NCBI GenBank assembly: GCA_964514585.1
Contig: CAZETU010000001.1
Location: 225,309-289,308 of the forward strand
Direction: 5' to 3'
DNA: 64,000 nt
DNA from: Candidatus Woesearchaeota archaeon
GTDB lineage: Archaea; Nanobdellota; Nanobdellia; Pacearchaeales; GW2011-AR1
Shown here in pieces: positions 31,840 through 37,815 of the stretch. Below the pieces are notes generated by a model. It worked only from the letters and a program-made list of their open reading frames with translations. It ran no database searches and had not been told where the DNA came from. Both the position numbers and the translations under genes were made by a program. Positions within the stretch are counted from its first letter, which is position 1. Each line of letters starts with the position of its first letter.

Positions 31840-32385
31840 TTAAGCAAGTACTTCAACATCAAAGAAATCAGTAGCATAAGCAGAGCCGTCCATCTTCACA
31901 TCAATATGCATCCTAAACGTACAAAGCGGCGCATTCTCAGGAATAAAAAATCTAACAATCCCAAAATAAGAATCCCCAGGAGCAATCGTCATCTGATCAC
32001 TTCGCCCAGTCTTAAGCCAACCCTCAATCGCCTTTTCATCAACCCCACATTTCTTTCGAACATCAGGATCAGAAACAGTAACCTCATAACTAAACTTCCC
32101 AACCTCAGCAGTCCCCCTCACCAAATTCTTTATACCAAACGCAATACCCCAGTCCTCATTCTGCTCAATCTTCGCAATCTGATTCGGCAAATAAACAACA
32201 GTCCTCTTATCCTCAACAAACAACTTATTTATCTGCGCCTTAACCTTATCATTCATCTGCAAAATATTCTCACTCGACCCAGTAAAAATATTCTTAACCA
32301 AAACCAACCCCAAAATCAACATCGACATCGCCAAAACAATCACAACAATCGTCCCAATAGACAACTCTATCGCACCCTTTTTCAT
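31840..32385 (-). CDS. Type IV pilin-like protein (class III signal peptide)
   Basis: MKKG/AIELSIGTIVVIVLAMSMLILGLVLV, with Glu at +3 after the presumed G/A cleavage. Confidence 0.75.
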   Translation of the reverse strand: MKKGAIELSIGTIVVIVLAMSMLILGLVLVKNIFTGSSENILQMNDKVKAQINKLFVEDKRTVVYLPNQIAKIEQNEDWGIAFGIKNLVRGTAEVGKFSYEVTVSDPDVRKKCGVDEKAIEGWLKTGRSDQMTIAPGDSYFGIVRFFIPENAPLCTFRMHIDVKMDGSAYATDFFDVEVLA

Positions 32386-32432
32386 ACAAGTCTATCGTTT
32401 CTTTTCTTTATAAAAGTTATGGGAAAATAAAA

Positions 32433-32504
32433 TGGGACTGGGGAGAATCGAACTCCCTACACCACGGTCTTCAGCCGTGTGCTCTCCCAATGAGCTACAG
32501 CCCC
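32433..32504 (-). tRNA. tRNA-Phe (GAA)
   Basis: GGGGCTG/CAGTCCC acceptor stem, CACGG-CTGAAGA-CCGTG anticodon arm, GGGAG-TTCGATT-CTCCC T arm; no encoded CCA. Confidence 0.97.
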
Positions 32505-32704
32505 ATTCAATATCAAGAGAAAAGTTACTTTTTAAGTTTAATCATGAGGAGTGCGAGAATCGAACGTCTACACCGAACGATTAGGTCTGAACAAATTTAG
32601 AAATAATTGCAGACATGATTGTGAGTAGGTCTTCAGCCGTGTGCTCTCTCGGGTGAGCTACAGCCCCATTCAATATCAAGAGAAAAGTTACTTTTTAAGT
32701 TTAA
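32466..32704. repeat. Direct repeat of tRNA-Phe 5' half plus promoter (32466..32541 and 32628..32704)
   Basis: ~76-bp copies, identical except in the D-loop (ccaat vs tcgggt on the + strand). Confidence 0.95.
32545..32667 (-). pseudogene. Degenerate tRNA-Phe-like copy with an ~50-nt insertion after the anticodon
   Basis: Intact 5' half to GAAGAC, then an insertion, then the eroded 3' half CGGTGTAGACGTTCGATTCTCGCACTCCTCA. Confidence 0.65.
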
Positions 32705-32761
32705 TTACAAATAGTAAGGCTCTTCCAAAAACAATAAAAAGAAACTTTTCTTAACTCTACT

Positions 32762-33349
32762 ATGTCGAAACTAGGATTCGAAGCAAAAAGAAAATTAATC
32801 CACCTTCTTGGTCTCACATATGTTCTCATCTACTGGCTAGCCCTAAAACTTCTCGGCCACCGAATCGCAATGCTAATACTCCTTTGTATTTTAATAACTT
32901 TCATCACAATAGAATTTTTCAGAATCAAAGAACACATGAAAATCCCGATATTCCACGTTCTCTGGCGATCAAAAGAAGAAAACACCCTCGGCGGACAAGT
33001 TTATTTCATGCTCGGAATAATTATAGCACTAGGTTTATTTGAGTTCAACATAGCACTCGCAGTAATTTTGATGACAGTATTCGGAGATATGGCAGCCGCA
33101 ATATTCGGAATCGCCTTCGGTAAACACTGGATCAAGAGCCTACCAGACACAGCATGGGAGGGTTGCATCGCAGAATTCATAGTTGACGTTGCAATAGGAC
33201 TTTTCATAATCGGCGACCCAATTATCGCAATCCCAATGGCACTAATGGCAACAATCGTAGAAACAATCTTCCCTCACATTGACGACAACTTAGCAATTCC
33301 AGTCTTCGCAGGTTTCGTCGGCCAAGGATTAAAATTACTTTTCCCTTAA
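32762..33349 (+). CDS. Dolichol/phytol kinase-CTP transferase family membrane protein
   Basis: KRKLIHLLG, FGDMAAAIFG..FGK, WEGCIA and IDDNLAIP. Confidence 0.85.
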   Translation: MSKLGFEAKRKLIHLLGLTYVLIYWLALKLLGHRIAMLILLCILITFITIEFFRIKEHMKIPIFHVLWRSKEENTLGGQVYFMLGIIIALGLFEFNIALAVILMTVFGDMAAAIFGIAFGKHWIKSLPDTAWEGCIAEFIVDVAIGLFIIGDPIIAIPMALMATIVETIFPHIDDNLAIPVFAGFVGQGLKLLFP

Positions 33350-33365
33350 TCCAAGAAAAATAAAC

Positions 33366-33666
33366 AGTCAGTAGGAAATAGGCCGTGTTCTGTCAAATTC
33401 CGTAATCGGACAATTTGTACTAACATCTGACTAAGCGGGTGCAATAACCCTTGCATCAATCAGGGTGCTCGTTCCAGCCGAATTAAATCGGATCGTTTCT
33501 ATACCAGAGCCACGCCTCGCGACGCACGATTTTCATCGTTAATTCCCCTTCGGGCTTTAGCAAACTAAATTGCTAAGGATGCACGGACCTTCCTCAGCGT
33601 CCAGAAATCATTTCATTTCTCCAGCCTTTTAGACCAGGACACCGACAGTTAGCTATCCTACTGACT
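33366..33666 (-). ncRNA. rnpB: RNase P RNA
   Basis: Terminal P1 helix AGTCAGTAGGA/TCCTACTGACT; GAGGAAGGTCCG and ACAGAACACGGCCTAT form P4; ~300 nt; Pop5-like protein at 55099..55380. Confidence 0.93.
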
Positions 33667-33684
33667 AATATATCAAAGTAAAAA

Positions 33685-33700
33685 ACCTTTTTAAGTTTAG
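33685..33700 (-). promoter_or_regulatory. BRE/TATA-like promoter of rnpB
   Basis: CTAAACTTAAAAAGG about 20-35 nt upstream of P1; the same TAAACTTAAAAAG precedes both tRNA-Phe copies. Confidence 0.6.
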
Positions 33701-33716
33701 TTGTTCTACAAATTTC

Positions 33717-34205
33717 ATGATAAACAAAATCAAAGACAACGTCTTTCAATTAGGCTTTCAGATATTCGGCAGCACAGTATACCTAATAAAATTAAACAAT
33801 CAAAACATTCTAATCGACACATCCAGCGAAGAAAACAAGCAAGAACTAATCAACGACTTAAAAAAACTAAATATAACCCCAGAAAAAATAAACATATTAA
33901 TTCTAACCCACGATCATTGGGACCACATAGGGAACAACAGCCTTTTCACAAACGCAAAAATCATAACTAACGAAAACACATCCGACCTCCTACAAGAATT
34001 CAAAACAATTCAAACTCCAGGTCACACCACAGACTCATTCTGCATCCTCTACGAAGACATACTTTTTTCAGGCGACACGATTTTCCATCACGGTGGCAGA
34101 GGCAGAACAGATTTACCAGGCGGCAGCGAAGAACAAATATTAAACAGCATAAGAAAATTAAAAGACATAGATTACAAAATATTATGCCCAGGACACATCG
34201 ATTAA
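33717..34205 (+). CDS. MBL-fold metallo-hydrolase (glyoxalase II-like)
   Basis: [22 protein letters not shown] and LCPGH. Confidence 0.92.
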
Positions 34206-34206
34206 A

Positions 34207-34623
34207 ATGAAAATCCACACAAAACAACTCCACATAAAAACCCCAAACCGAATAGACTTCGTAAACATAACAAACAAAATTCAAGAAATAGTCGACGAAT
34301 CAGAAGTTCAAGACGGCTTAGTCCTAATCAACCCAATGCATATCACAGCCTCAGTCTTTATCAACGACGCCGAATCAGGATTAATTCAAGATTTTAAAGA
34401 ATGGTTAGAAAAACTAGCTCCAAAAAATTTCAACTACCATCACCACCAAACAGGTGAAGACAACGGCTTTTCACATCTCTGGAGAACAATCATGGGAAGA
34501 GAAACAACTGTGGCAATAACAAACGGACAACTCGATTTCGGCACATGGGAACAAATTTTTTACGGCGAGTTCGACGGACAACGCGACAAAAGAATTCTAG
34601 TTAAAATAATTGGAGAACAATAA
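34207..34623 (+). CDS. yjbQ: YjbQ/UPF0047 family protein
   Basis: [18 protein letters not shown] and [15 protein letters not shown]. Confidence 0.9.
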
Positions 34624-34654
34624 TTCTTAAATAGTTTGTATTTCTGATTAATTT

Positions 34655-34780
34655 ATGGAAAAACTTGAGATTGCGACAGATATGGACGGCGCAGATCTCC
34701 GATGCAAAGGATGGTGCCACGATTTTAGCCCAGGAACTGTTGGTTACAAAAGTACTCCAGCAATAGAATATTTTGAATAA
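34655..34780 (+). CDS. Putative RiPP precursor peptide (41 aa)
   Basis: Manual translation MEKLEIATDMDGADLRCKGWCHDFSPGTVGYKSTPAIEYFE; fills the gap 32 nt before the rSAM/SPASM ATG. Confidence 0.7.
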   Translation: MEKLEIATDMDGADLRCKGWCHDFSPGTVGYKSTPAIEYFE

Positions 34781-34812
34781 ATTTTTATTTAATATTCTAG
34801 GAATAACCATAG

Positions 34813-36195
34813 ATGAAACTTTCCAAATTAGCCAGAATCTACGAATTTGGAGGTGAAGATAAATTTTATTATGTCATCCGCCATAGTATATTAAACAAGT
34901 CCTTCATTTTTTCCGAAGAAGAATATGAACAATTAATTGATTCTTTAAAATCAGGCGAAGACAACGATGTAATTCAAGAGCTAAGAGTAAATCATATAAT
35001 TGTCGGAAACAACTACAAAGAAGAAAAGTTTATCGATTTTTTAAAAGATAATTATAATTCCAACAAATTTAGTTTAGAAATTGTTTATCTAATATTTAAT
35101 TCCAATTGCAATCTAAAATGTAAATATTGCTATGTTGAAAAAAGTACAGACCCAAAATTCTCTCATCAATCAATGGATGAGCCTACCTTCGAAAAAACAA
35201 TGACATGTATAGAAAGAATAATATCTAAAGCAAACAAAAAGAAAATCAATTTCATTTTTTACGGATCAGAACCCTTAATGGCAAAAGATATGATTTCAAA
35301 AAGTCTAGAAAGAATATCGGCGGCCTGTAAAAACACAGAAACAGAAACAGAATTTAATATTACGACAAACGGGACATTATTTGATAATCAGATTCTAGAA
35401 ATATTCAAAAAGTACAAAGTCAAAGTTTCGGTGTCACTAGATGGACCAAAAGAAGTCAATGACCAAATGAGAGTGACCCAAGAAAACCATGGAACTTTCG
35501 AAGAAATATCCTCATCTCTAGAAATGTTAAATGAAAAAGAAATCCCTTTCGGTATATCATGTACGATAGGACCGCATAATATCAACACCCTAAAGGAAAA
35601 TATAGAACTCTTTAAAAAAATGGGGGCGACAAGCATCGGGTTCAATATATTACTCAATGCACGTTACTACAAAATTCCTCAAGTGCCATTAAACAAATTA
35701 AATGATAATCTTATTGCAGCTTCAGAAGTAGCAAGATTACAAGGCATTTATGAGGATCGCGTTCAAAGAAAATACAGAGCATTTCATAATTCAATCCCAA
35801 GATTAAAAGATTGTGGAGGTGTAGGAAATCAACTAGTTTTTTTCCCAAATGGAGACATTGGCGTTTGCGAAGCCCATTTGTGTAATCGAAAATACGAAGT
35901 AGGAACCGTCGACGACTTTGAATTAGACAACATTAAAAACAATGACATAATAAAACTCTGGACCGAAAGATATCCCCTTAATATGCCTGAATGCACATAT
36001 TGTCCAGCAATCGGAATCTGCGGAGGAGGCTGTCCCTTCAACGCCGAAACAAGAATGAAGAATTTAAAAAAACTAGACAAACCATTTTGCATTCACACAA
36101 CAAAAATTTTAGATTGGCTACTGGAAAAATCTGTCTCAGAAAAAACTGGAGAAAAAGACCTTTACATGAGAGACATTTCATTTATGTTCCAATAA
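34813..36195 (+). CDS. Radical SAM/SPASM-domain enzyme (probable peptide maturase)
   Basis: CNLKCKYC; SPASM C-X12-G-X4-C ... CX2CX5CX3C ... C; ~75-aa N-terminal extension before the rSAM motif. Confidence 0.93.
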   Translation: MKLSKLARIYEFGGEDKFYYVIRHSILNKSFIFSEEEYEQLIDSLKSGEDNDVIQELRVNHIIVGNNYKEEKFIDFLKDNYNSNKFSLEIVYLIFNSNCNLKCKYCYVEKSTDPKFSHQSMDEPTFEKTMTCIERIISKANKKKINFIFYGSEPLMAKDMISKSLERISAACKNTETETEFNITTNGTLFDNQILEIFKKYKVKVSVSLDGPKEVNDQMRVTQENHGTFEEISSSLEMLNEKEIPFGISCTIGPHNINTLKENIELFKKMGATSIGFNILLNARYYKIPQVPLNKLNDNLIAASEVARLQGIYEDRVQRKYRAFHNSIPRLKDCGGVGNQLVFFPNGDIGVCEAHLCNRKYEVGTVDDFELDNIKNNDIIKLWTERYPLNMPECTYCPAIGICGGGCPFNAETRMKNLKKLDKPFCIHTTKILDWLLEKSVSEKTGEKDLYMRDISFMFQ

Positions 36196-36229
36196 ATAAT
36201 TTTAAATGCTGCATAACCCTTTGAATTTA

Positions 36230-36679
36230 ATGAAAATAAGAAAAGCAACAAATAAAGATTTTGATCAATATCTAAAATTACGAAAAGAAGACATCTCAGA
36301 ATACTCCAATTTAATAAAAAAGAAAATTTCCTTAGTTCAAGATTTACAAATCAAAAAAGAGTTCGAAGGAATGTCAAAATCAAAAGAGCACCTTATCTTG
36401 GTCGCAGAAAAAGAAGGAAAACTCCTGGGCTATCTCACGGGATCAATTATTAAAAACATTTGGCAAAAGAGCGGCTATGTAGACGACATTTTCACCTCAA
36501 AAGAATTAAAAAGAAAAGGAATCGCCACGCACTTGATGAAATCATTTATTAAATTCCTCAAAGCAAAAAACATCAAAAAATGCAAGCTTGGGGTGAACAT
36601 AAAAAATAAAAAAGCAATAAAATTATACAAAAAACTCGGATTCAAGCTTTCTCATTACGAAATGGATCTTTCAATCTAA
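36230..36679 (+). CDS. GNAT N-acetyltransferase
   Basis: YVDDIFTSKELKRKGIATHLM...N.KAIKLYKKLGF; start at 36230 or 36206. Confidence 0.92.
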   Translation: MKIRKATNKDFDQYLKLRKEDISEYSNLIKKKISLVQDLQIKKEFEGMSKSKEHLILVAEKEGKLLGYLTGSIIKNIWQKSGYVDDIFTSKELKRKGIATHLMKSFIKFLKAKNIKKCKLGVNIKNKKAIKLYKKLGFKLSHYEMDLSI

Positions 36680-36690
36680 TCGACAACTAA

Positions 36691-37041
36691 TCAACCAGTC
36701 CGCTCTCTTTGCCCAGCGAGCCTAATAACAAACCTATACTCTTTCTTCCTTTTCGCATGTTTACTTCGATTCCAATTTTGCTTAACATACCTAATATGGG
36801 CCTTTCTCCCAGGGTAGTACTTAACATTTCCCAGGTCAGTTTCCAAATAACACTTCCTTGAACCCCGAGCCGAAAGATAAATACTCCCCCCTGTATATAA
36901 ATTAGAAATACTATCTACATGAACATCAGGGAAACTCCCATCCGGAGCAACAATATCTGCCCGCATCCTTTTAAGAAGACCAGTCACCTTTTCATTTTGC
37001 CTATTAGGCAAAACTCTCGTTGCAACAATATTATTTCTCAT
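36691..37041 (-). CDS. Hypothetical basic protein
   Basis: ORF only. Confidence 0.55.
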   Translation of the reverse strand: MRNNIVATRVLPNRQNEKVTGLLKRMRADIVAPDGSFPDVHVDSISNLYTGGSIYLSARGSRKCYLETDLGNVKYYPGRKAHIRYVKQNWNRSKHAKRKKEYRFVIRLAGQRERTG

Positions 37042-37078
37042 AAAACTACATAAAACAAAACACTTTAAATTTTTCTAA

Positions 37079-37438
37079 TTAAGCAAATTCCCTAACTTCA
37101 AAATAATCAGGTCTTATATTGATTTCAATTTGTTTTCCAAAATGGTTTTCATAAAGATTAACATATCTTAACGCAGCAACCCTAAACCTTCTTGTATTTT
37201 GAATAGTAATTGAAGATCCATCAAGATTAACAAAGCCAGCAACGCCAGACCCTCTTCTCGAATCCCCAAGTTTCCATCTAGTAGCGATAGTCCCAAGTTT
37301 CCCAGTTTCCATTCGAGGACTTCTAGAGTCTTTAGTTATAACAGTATCAGCCCTGTATTGTGGCCCAAAACTCTTACTAACAAATCGATTAACAACCCTA
37401 ATAGTTTCTTTGTGATCTCCAGGCGCCATACAATCCAC
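37079..37438 (-). CDS. Hypothetical protein
   Basis: ORF only. Confidence 0.55.
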   Translation of the reverse strand: MDCMAPGDHKETIRVVNRFVSKSFGPQYRADTVITKDSRSPRMETGKLGTIATRWKLGDSRRGSGVAGFVNLDGSSITIQNTRRFRVAALRYVNLYENHFGKQIEINIRPDYFEVREFA

Positions 37439-37500
37439 AGAAAATTAACCTATATAAGAATTATTGCGATTAACTTCATTAATCTCAATAATTTCATGAT

Positions 37501-37815
37501 TTAAAGAACTTCATAAAAATGACCATCACCAGTATATATAAAATGTCTAGCCTTCGTATCATATTTCTTGTTCAACCCAAAACAACCTAGCGCACAACCT
37601 CCAAGCATAAGAACAATATAAGGCCAAGTATCCCTCAATTTATCACCTGCCTGCTCCACCACTTTATTCAACGGAACAAACTTAAAATCATAATCATCAT
37701 GAATTTTCTTAGCCAAGCCAATAGTTCCAGCAGCCTGAATTAAGATACCCAAAATCAAAGCATTTCTTGCAAGGCCACGTCTACTCTTCCTAATATAATC
37801 TTTAACCATAAACAT
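37501..37815 (-). CDS. Hypothetical two-TM protein
   Basis: Two hydrophobic segments. Confidence 0.55.
   Translation of the reverse strand: MFMVKDYIRKSRRGLARNALILGILIQAAGTIGLAKKIHDDYDFKFVPLNKVVEQAGDKLRDTWPYIVLMLGGCALGCFGLNKKYDTKARHFIYTGDGHFYEVL

Follow-up and report, generated by a model that had tools for sequence, protein, structure and literature searches.

A candidate radical SAM peptide-modification cassette in a DPANN archaeon, with an acetyltransferase gene in place of the HExxH gene of most relatives

The DPANN archaea, whose genomes are tiny, are presumed to live on other cells, and how they communicate or come into conflict with their partners is poorly understood. A locus from Candidatus Woesearchaeota archaeon (assembly GCA_964514585.1, contig CAZETU010000001.1; "the window" denotes the whole 64,000-nucleotide stretch analysed) raises the question of whether such an organism makes a modified peptide of its own. 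On the plus strand, within approximately 2 kb, a 41-amino-acid (aa) open reading frame (ORF), a 460-aa radical S-adenosylmethionine (rSAM)/SPASM gene and a 157-aa gene for a GCN5-related N-acetyltransferase (GNAT) follow one another in this order (Table 1). The initial annotation, made from the window's letters and translated reading frames, had read them as a candidate cluster for a peptide that is made ribosomally and then modified post-translationally (RiPP); its coordinates were confirmed, namely the ORF as quoted, 32 nt before the rSAM gene, with the GNAT gene on the same strand. The host genome (1.04 Mb, 89.65% complete) is archaeal, with an archaeal rRNA operon beside the locus. As argued here, the cassette is probably a genuine RiPP-type system, in which a peptide expressed from its own promoter would be cross-linked through thioethers by an rSAM/SPASM enzyme guided by a RiPP recognition element (RRE), with the GNAT serving for tailoring or self-protection.

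Whether the short ORF is a gene at all can be judged from its relatives. In public metagenomes and metagenome-assembled genomes (MAGs), about 55 proteins of 460–475 aa are close relatives of the rSAM protein, with 42–81% identity, and 95 related loci were retrieved, about 49 of which encode a close rSAM orthologue (at least 42% identity). At the orthologue loci with sufficient flanking sequence, a short same-strand ORF ends 1–76 nt before the rSAM start; these ORFs encode 34 distinct peptides, and the conserved CxGWC-like peptides sought upstream of close homologues on the strength of the initial annotation were thus found. There are two exceptions: one copy (L030) has an internal stop, and at another locus (L059:7192-7365, minus strand) the precursor, of the sister class B described below, lies on the strand opposite to the rSAM gene and in front of a gene for an HExxH-motif protein, so that the peptide is linked to the HExxH protein and not to the enzyme alone. 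The L035 contig, with only 71 nt of upstream sequence, is too short for this check. When 33 of the peptides are aligned, M1, R16, C17 and C21 (window numbering) show no variation, and conservation reaches at least 90% at E2 and F40. The codons of the core vary synonymously among 27 distinct DNA versions (four for Arg, two for Cys, three for Gly and two for His), a pattern indicative of purifying selection at the protein level. A TATA-like element (TTTAAATA/TTTATATA) precedes the ATG by approximately 22–30 nt in 25 of the 25 loci listed and would imply that the peptide has an archaeal promoter of its own and a leaderless or near-leaderless mRNA. Because the ORF is conserved beside rSAM orthologues, varies synonymously and follows a conserved TATA-like box, sequence comparison indicates that it is a real gene and not a chance frame. 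Some annotation pipelines already call the peptide as a gene, and its family comprises 62 clusters in a set of 5.8 billion proteins, none of them functionally named or bearing a Pfam domain. The core motif is single-copy in the window's genome. No NCBIfam model fits the window peptide, and among the 33 peptides there is one marginal match, to TIGR04135 (E 0.055).

The window peptide consists of a leader (approximately residues 1–15, beginning M-E-K-L-E), a single core unit, R16-C17-K-G-W-C21-H-D, and the tail P-A-I-E-Y-F-E. In the family anatomy, an M-E-x-L-E leader is followed by one to three tandem units ending in (E)-L-R-C-K-G-W-C-H-(D), a variable linker and a P-x-x-(E/K/D)-Y-F tail. Tandem units of this sort are also seen in other repeat-motif rSAM substrates. 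Three precursor classes can be recognized, and the core that is invariant across all of them is R-C-x3-C: in sister class B it reads R-C-x-G-M-C and is followed by four more Cys, and in sister class C it reads R-C-R-D-S-C-P-C. The P-x-x-E-Y-F tail is common to the three classes. The substrate residues that had been proposed initially, in the core and in the aromatic C-terminal part, fare unevenly: only C17 and C21, with the neighbouring R16, are invariant, F40 is at least 90% conserved, and W20 and H22 are restricted to one precursor class. Two other readings of these motifs were considered and rejected, a heme-binding C-x3-C-H motif in the core, as classes B and C are without a His in register, and a proteasome-docking Hb-Y-X motif in the tail, as variable residues follow Y-F.

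The enzyme encoded downstream was compared with known maturases at the level of motifs, domains and predicted structure. C99, C103 and C106 of the CxxxCxxC motif and the full set of seven SPASM cysteines (C334, C352, C394, C397, C403, C407 and C426), which align with those of CteB, are invariant in 35 orthologues, as expected from the motifs first noticed in the window. Pfam recognizes Radical_SAM (PF04055; 64.5 bits, cut-off 29.5) and also Fer4_12, and in the precomputed annotation Pfam SPASM is assigned to some of the orthologues only. The AlphaFold2 model (mean predicted local distance difference test, pLDDT, 93.2) begins with three strands (residues 7–13, 18–24 and 30–34) followed by three helices (35–47, 52–59 and 70–80), with pLDDT above 90, and the predicted topology of residues 1 to approximately 85 is RRE-like. 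The sequence of this domain has no match to Pfam PqqD, even at E up to 1, and it is from the predicted fold that the domain is assigned as an RRE. In structural alignments, CteB (5WGG; Z 32.8, 410 residues) covers residues 4–444 of the model and TigE (8VPO; Z 30.4) residues 1–445, the N-terminal domain superposing on both; anSME and ChlB, both without an RRE-like domain, match only from residues 85–88 on (anSME from about 87). The suggestion that the N-terminal extension is an RRE is therefore upheld for the modelled fold. CteB is the best solved relative by sequence profile as well (E 1.1e-33). Four features of an RRE-dependent rSAM/SPASM maturase, the kind to which CteB, PapB and AlbA belong, come together in this enzyme: the CxxxCxxC motif, the seven-Cys SPASM set, the RRE as seen in the predicted structure and a co-varying adjacent precursor.

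Family scores place the enzyme close to maturases that act on cysteine-containing peptides. The top NCBIfam model is the FibroRumin maturase (TIGR04136; 217.5 bits over residues 52–437, cut-off 400) and the second best the PapB ranthipeptide maturase (NF047865; 161.1 bits, cut-off 340); CefB scores 138 bits, below its cut-off, anSME (TIGR03942) 137.2 bits against 349, the cyclophane and dynobactin maturases 110–135 bits, and the SCIFF maturase (TIGR03974) 107.5 bits against 425, with the MftC and PqqE models far below the Cys-peptide maturases. The enzyme is of the RRE-rSAM-SPASM kind, outside every named family. These results bear on the alternative of a fortuitous short reading frame beside an anSME-type protein maturase whose substrate is encoded elsewhere. 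The score of the anSME model and the match of anSME structures to the core, at a Z of about 31, speak for it, but that score is under the cut-off, the RRE-like domain of the enzyme is not present in anSME, and the conserved ORF varies synonymously, is preceded by a promoter element of its own and diversifies together with the enzyme. The peptide is also without the sulfatase motif C/S-x-P/A-x-R. We consider this alternative extremely improbable. The initial annotation had named scoring against the anSME models as a check, and the outcome favours its reading, the best family scores of the enzyme being those of peptide maturases.

In a maximum-likelihood tree of 29 family enzymes and five outgroups, the DPANN enzyme family is monophyletic (support 100/100), and its three clades match the three classes of precursor, so that peptide and enzyme co-evolve. 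The MAGs that supply the close homologues bear the names Pacearchaeota, Woesearchaeota and Nanoarchaeota. Within the order, the search recovered the cassette from 10 of 401 genomes, which belong to 7 of 153 genera and to a single family. A close rSAM orthologue was absent from the first 36 same-genus and 24 same-order representative genomes searched, and the wider draw of 401 genomes contained one other same-genus genome (G066) with the cassette, which is a rare, patchy accessory trait. Second-tier homologues (31–35% identity) were also considered as precursor carriers and were rejected, their apparent upstream ORFs being the N-termini of the enzymes themselves. In two same-order genomes (G049 and G059), other short Cys-rich ORFs are found directly upstream of distant rSAM/SPASM homologues of 27–32% identity (L003:1211-1324 and L004:1327-1431), with cores that differ from those of the R-C-x3-C family.

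Most members of the family have a partner gene that is not the GNAT. In 24 of 33 loci, a gene of approximately 245 aa with an HExxH motif is oriented convergently to the rSAM gene, whose 3' end it overlaps. Sequence searches of Pfam, NCBIfam and the PDB gave no match for the protein; its invariant residues are H115, E116 and H119 and D152-E153-G154, and its family consists of 75 clusters, each at E <1e-30 and none functionally named, beyond which no more distant relative was recovered. The top 50 structural matches of its model (pLDDT 94.5) are nearly all zincin peptidase domains, at Z 5.4–8.0 only; the best Foldseek match has an E-value of 4.8e-3, the atlas matches also point to zincin peptidases, and an HExxH oxygenase domain (Z 5.5) is among the weak matches. 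We take the HExxH protein to be a putative private peptidase of the cassette, probably for cleavage of the leader or between repeats. The initial annotation had noted that no leader protease is adjacent, which is true of the window and does not hold for most of the family. In the window's genome the HExxH protein was not found by single-protein or profile search, an absence that the completeness of the genome leaves unproven. Three positions ahead of the first core Cys, where the window peptide has D14, a Glu is found in 16 of 17 HExxH-type class A peptides; at the first unit of the five peptides from the GNAT-containing clade, the same position is occupied by D, S, V, G or A. The acidic residue might conceivably belong to the recognition site of the HExxH protein, the pattern representing one evolutionary event.

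The new element at the window's locus is the GNAT in place of the HExxH gene. The protein is a clear Acetyltransf_1 member (Pfam PF00583; 68.1 bits against a gathering threshold of 20.7); its best NCBIfam match is RimI (TIGR01575), at 54.4 bits below the cut-off of 86.4, and the RiPP N-acetyltransferase HaaN (NF041716) scores 18.9 bits, below the cut-off of 250. The members of the GNAT clade, by rSAM identity to the window, are L035 (81%), L052 and L137 (68%), L135 (65%) and L136 (64%), and the three members placed in the tree are monophyletic (support 100/98). In five loci, among them L035, L052, L135 and L136, orthologous GNATs lie directly downstream on the same strand, the gaps within the precursor-rSAM-GNAT series being 10–45 nt, and full-length copies are 52–66% identical to one another. 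L052 and L137 share the upstream YjbQ gene with the window; L135 and L136 have flanking sequences that bear no relation to those of the window. At L039, which is nested among HExxH-type loci, an unrelated GNAT (28–30% identity, blastp) occupies the position of the HExxH gene. Because the clade keeps its GNAT despite differing flanks, and because of the independent GNAT replacement at L039, the balance favours a functional link between GNAT and cassette, and the protein is a candidate tailoring or self-protection enzyme in this clade. The view of the initial annotation that the GNAT belongs with the cassette thus gains from the fact that, in the window's clade, it stays next to the rSAM gene while the flanks differ.

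A second rSAM/SPASM gene, for a 368-aa protein, is encoded elsewhere in the window's genome (L002:1594-3461, on contig C3 at approximately 22.3–24.2 kb). Its best models (AhbD, NirJ2 and MftC) are all below cut-off, and it is translationally coupled to a gene for a 253-aa protein that has an N-terminal extension of about 95 residues and then a GNAT domain (residues 100–190). Two overlapping short ORFs lie just upstream of the 368-aa gene, and the locus may be a second rSAM-plus-GNAT peptide system.

Taken together, these data allow a mechanism to be proposed. The peptide would be transcribed from its own promoter, and its M-E-x-L-E leader would dock on the RRE-like domain of the rSAM/SPASM enzyme. 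The enzyme would then abstract a hydrogen atom by 5'-deoxyadenosyl radical chemistry, aided by two auxiliary Fe-S clusters, and a Cys sulfur at R-C-x3-C would be joined to a carbon of a nearby residue, giving a thioether of the sactionine or ranthionine type, with one cross-linking reaction per unit. Thioether formation would proceed as with CteB, PapB, QhpD and the archaeal CrpC (PMC13692751). The product would subsequently be finished or neutralised by the HExxH protein in most lineages or by the GNAT in the window's clade, where the GNAT would most likely acetylate the peptide, as tailoring or as self-protection; the product might also have a role outside the cell. On grounds that are indirect, Cys-derived thioether bridges appear to be the most likely product: after M1 only the Arg and the two Cys are invariant, the sister classes are Cys-richer and the nearest families act on Cys peptides. 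Both the chemistry and the substrate residues named are putative.

Several observations weigh against this interpretation, and those concerning the chemistry are the first to be considered. All NCBIfam maturase models are below cut-off, so that the chemistry is not transferable by family membership; the structural neighbours of the enzyme include other chemistries (TigE, ChlB and anSME); and the conserved aromatic tail P-x-x-E-Y-F could be the real modification site. An alternative that keeps the precursor-maturase pair and changes the chemistry would have, instead of a thioether, a C-C, C-N or C-O link on W20, H22 or Y39/F40, or epimerisation or cyclopropanation, with the Cys as metal or Fe-S contacts or in a disulfide. 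It draws on the conservation of F40 and of the tail in the three classes, on TigE and ChlB, which are structurally as high as CteB (Z 30–33), and on the scores of the cyclophane and dynobactin maturase models. However, the invariant residues other than M1 are R16, C17 and C21, classes B and C are without the Trp and His and are richer in Cys, tandem duplication multiplies the Cys unit and not the tail, and the top sequence-family scores are those of Cys-peptide maturases (FibroRumin, PapB and CefB). We regard such a non-thioether product as possible though rather unlikely. A bolder proposal, unlikely in our judgement, combines an undescribed cross-link, for example from the paired Cys of R-C-x3-C to the adjacent Trp/His or to the Tyr-Phe tail, with a contact-dependent signal or weapon between a DPANN episymbiont and its host or competitors and a swap of zincin and acetyltransferase as alternative means of activation or detoxification.

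A second group of observations concerns the GNAT, whose linkage rests on one clade. The window's genome has nine GNAT-domain matches, and same-genus relatives of the GNAT (38–45% identity) have no rSAM or YjbQ match in the 2–3.4 kb fetched around them. With its RimI and HaaN scores, and with most of the family (the 24 of 33 loci with the HExxH gene) working without a GNAT, this fits a bystander inherited beside the cassette, which would act on a protein N-terminus (ribosomal or other) or on a small molecule, the system then consisting of peptide and rSAM enzyme only. Such a bystander would not lead one to expect a gene order kept with short gaps at 64–81% enzyme identity and in the differing surroundings of L135 and L136, a GNAT identity that tracks enzyme identity, or a different GNAT independently in the same slot at L039. 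The bystander explanation is accordingly a serious possibility, albeit the less probable one, and we retain the GNAT as a putative member of the cassette.

The remaining difficulties concern export and gene integrity. The window yielded neither an exporter nor an immunity gene nor a peptidase. Together with the fact that no signal peptide was seen, and with a C-x3-C-H motif that could bind metal, the missing exporter would suit an intracellular, peptide-derived cofactor or metal-binding factor, similar to PQQ or mycofactocin, that is not secreted; the E-Y-F tail is reminiscent of the Glu/Tyr site in PqqA and the Val-Tyr site in MftA. Yet the rare and patchy distribution described above is a better fit to an accessory trait of conflict or communication, no further cofactor-pathway genes are conserved nearby, and the scores of the MftC and PqqE models fall well short of those for the Cys-peptide maturases, which makes a cofactor quite improbable. 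As to gene integrity, the rSAM gene of the 68% relative is broken by a frameshift near residue 330, shortly ahead of the first SPASM Cys, into ORFs of 336 and 99 aa (L052:2348-3726 and L137:5001-6382), identically in JGI and ENA contigs, and that of G066 (L028) falls into two pieces of 82 and 387 aa. The split genes could reflect decay or assembly error.

Upstream of the cassette, Pfam recognizes an MBL-fold gene in addition to the YjbQ gene listed in Table 1. Between the GNAT gene and the 23S rRNA gene, three ORFs of 104–119 aa lie on the minus strand (window positions 36691-37815); they match no Pfam family, and no Rfam RNA was found in that stretch. No 5S rRNA was detected beside the rRNA operon. 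The G+C content of the cassette (window positions 34600-36700) is 0.26–0.39, mostly below that of the upstream flank (32000-34500), which is 0.37–0.44; this fits an acquired accessory module, without proving one.

Table 1. Positions in the window of the cassette, its parts and the adjacent upstream features
Feature	Position	Strand	Description	Basis
Precursor peptide gene	34655..34780	+	41 aa, ATG start, TAA stop	ORF read from sequence
rSAM/SPASM gene	34813..36195	+	460 aa; 32 nt after precursor ORF	
GNAT acetyltransferase gene	36206..36679	+	157 aa; 10 nt after rSAM stop	
YjbQ/UPF0047 gene	34207..34623		upstream of precursor	Pfam
TATA-like box TTAAATA	34627..34633	+	21 nt before precursor ATG	read from sequence
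N-terminal RRE-like domain of maturase, residues ~1-85	34813..35067	+		predicted structure
Radical SAM core and SPASM domain	35068..36195	+		Pfam and invariant Cys
C99-x3-C103-x2-C106 motif	35107-35130	+	radical SAM cluster	
SPASM Cys C334 to C426	35812-36090	+	seven invariant Cys	

How, then, does the cassette compare with known systems? The family is small, unnamed and found only in DPANN archaea. As a cassette of about 2 kb and three genes, with a delimited precursor family and two alternative partner enzymes, it amounts to a natural experiment and offers a practical entry to the chemistry. The closest solved counterpart is the SCIFF ranthipeptide/sactipeptide system CteB/CteA of Clostridium thermocellum (5WGG/5WHY), which likewise has the RRE, the radical SAM core and the seven-Cys SPASM domain in one chain and a short Cys-containing precursor encoded next door. 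It differs in that the window precursor has no SCIFF family match and a different leader, in the R-C-x3-C core that can be repeated in tandem and the conserved aromatic tail of the window's family, in the archaeal (DPANN) hosts, and in the HExxH or GNAT partner genes, which are not part of SCIFF loci. FibroRumin (TIGR04136/TIGR04135) provides the top curated maturase model and has a Cys-rich target, and an enzyme so named (P0091) is 32% identical to that of the window; the DPANN clade (100/100) nevertheless stands apart in the tree from the FibroRumin-named protein and from the other second-tier bacterial homologues, and the literature search found no paper on FibroRumin chemistry. In the PapB/PapA system, which yields the ranthipeptide freyrasin, the repeated short Cys motif of PapA is reportedly cross-linked unit by unit. 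The C-x3-D unit of that system is not what the DPANN peptides conserve: Asp commonly follows C-H in class A and is absent there in the others. TigE (8VPO) is a full-length structural match, N-terminal domain included, with a profile E-value of 4.1e-31 and 21–23% sequence identity to the window enzyme; its substrate carries tandem short repeats, and its chemistry is reportedly cyclopropane formation on aliphatic repeat residues, with no Cys involved.

A search of the DPANN, Nanoarchaeota, ranthipeptide and sactipeptide literature found no paper on this peptide and enzyme family. Bulk surveys count antiSMASH-type rSAM RiPP clusters in DPANN/Nanoarchaeota (PMC12144867, PMC9902471), and few archaeal RiPP products have been identified so far (PMC12144867). 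A modified-peptide pathway in a genome-reduced episymbiont is consequently less unexpected than the initial annotation had held, as rSAM peptide cassettes recur in DPANN genomes in the published surveys. An archaeal parallel is CrpC of Methanococcus voltae, a SPASM rSAM enzyme with a predicted RRE and two auxiliary clusters that installs ranthionine links (PMC13692751). The likeness lies in an archaeal RRE-SPASM rSAM enzyme with a Cys-rich substrate in the same cluster; the differences, in a comparison by description only, are that CrpA is a cysteine-rich protein and not a peptide of approximately 40 residues, and that the host is a methanogen. If the interpretation proposed here is true, the cassette would extend archaeal thioether rSAM chemistry, known from the methanogen protein substrate (PMC13692751), to true short peptides of DPANN archaea.

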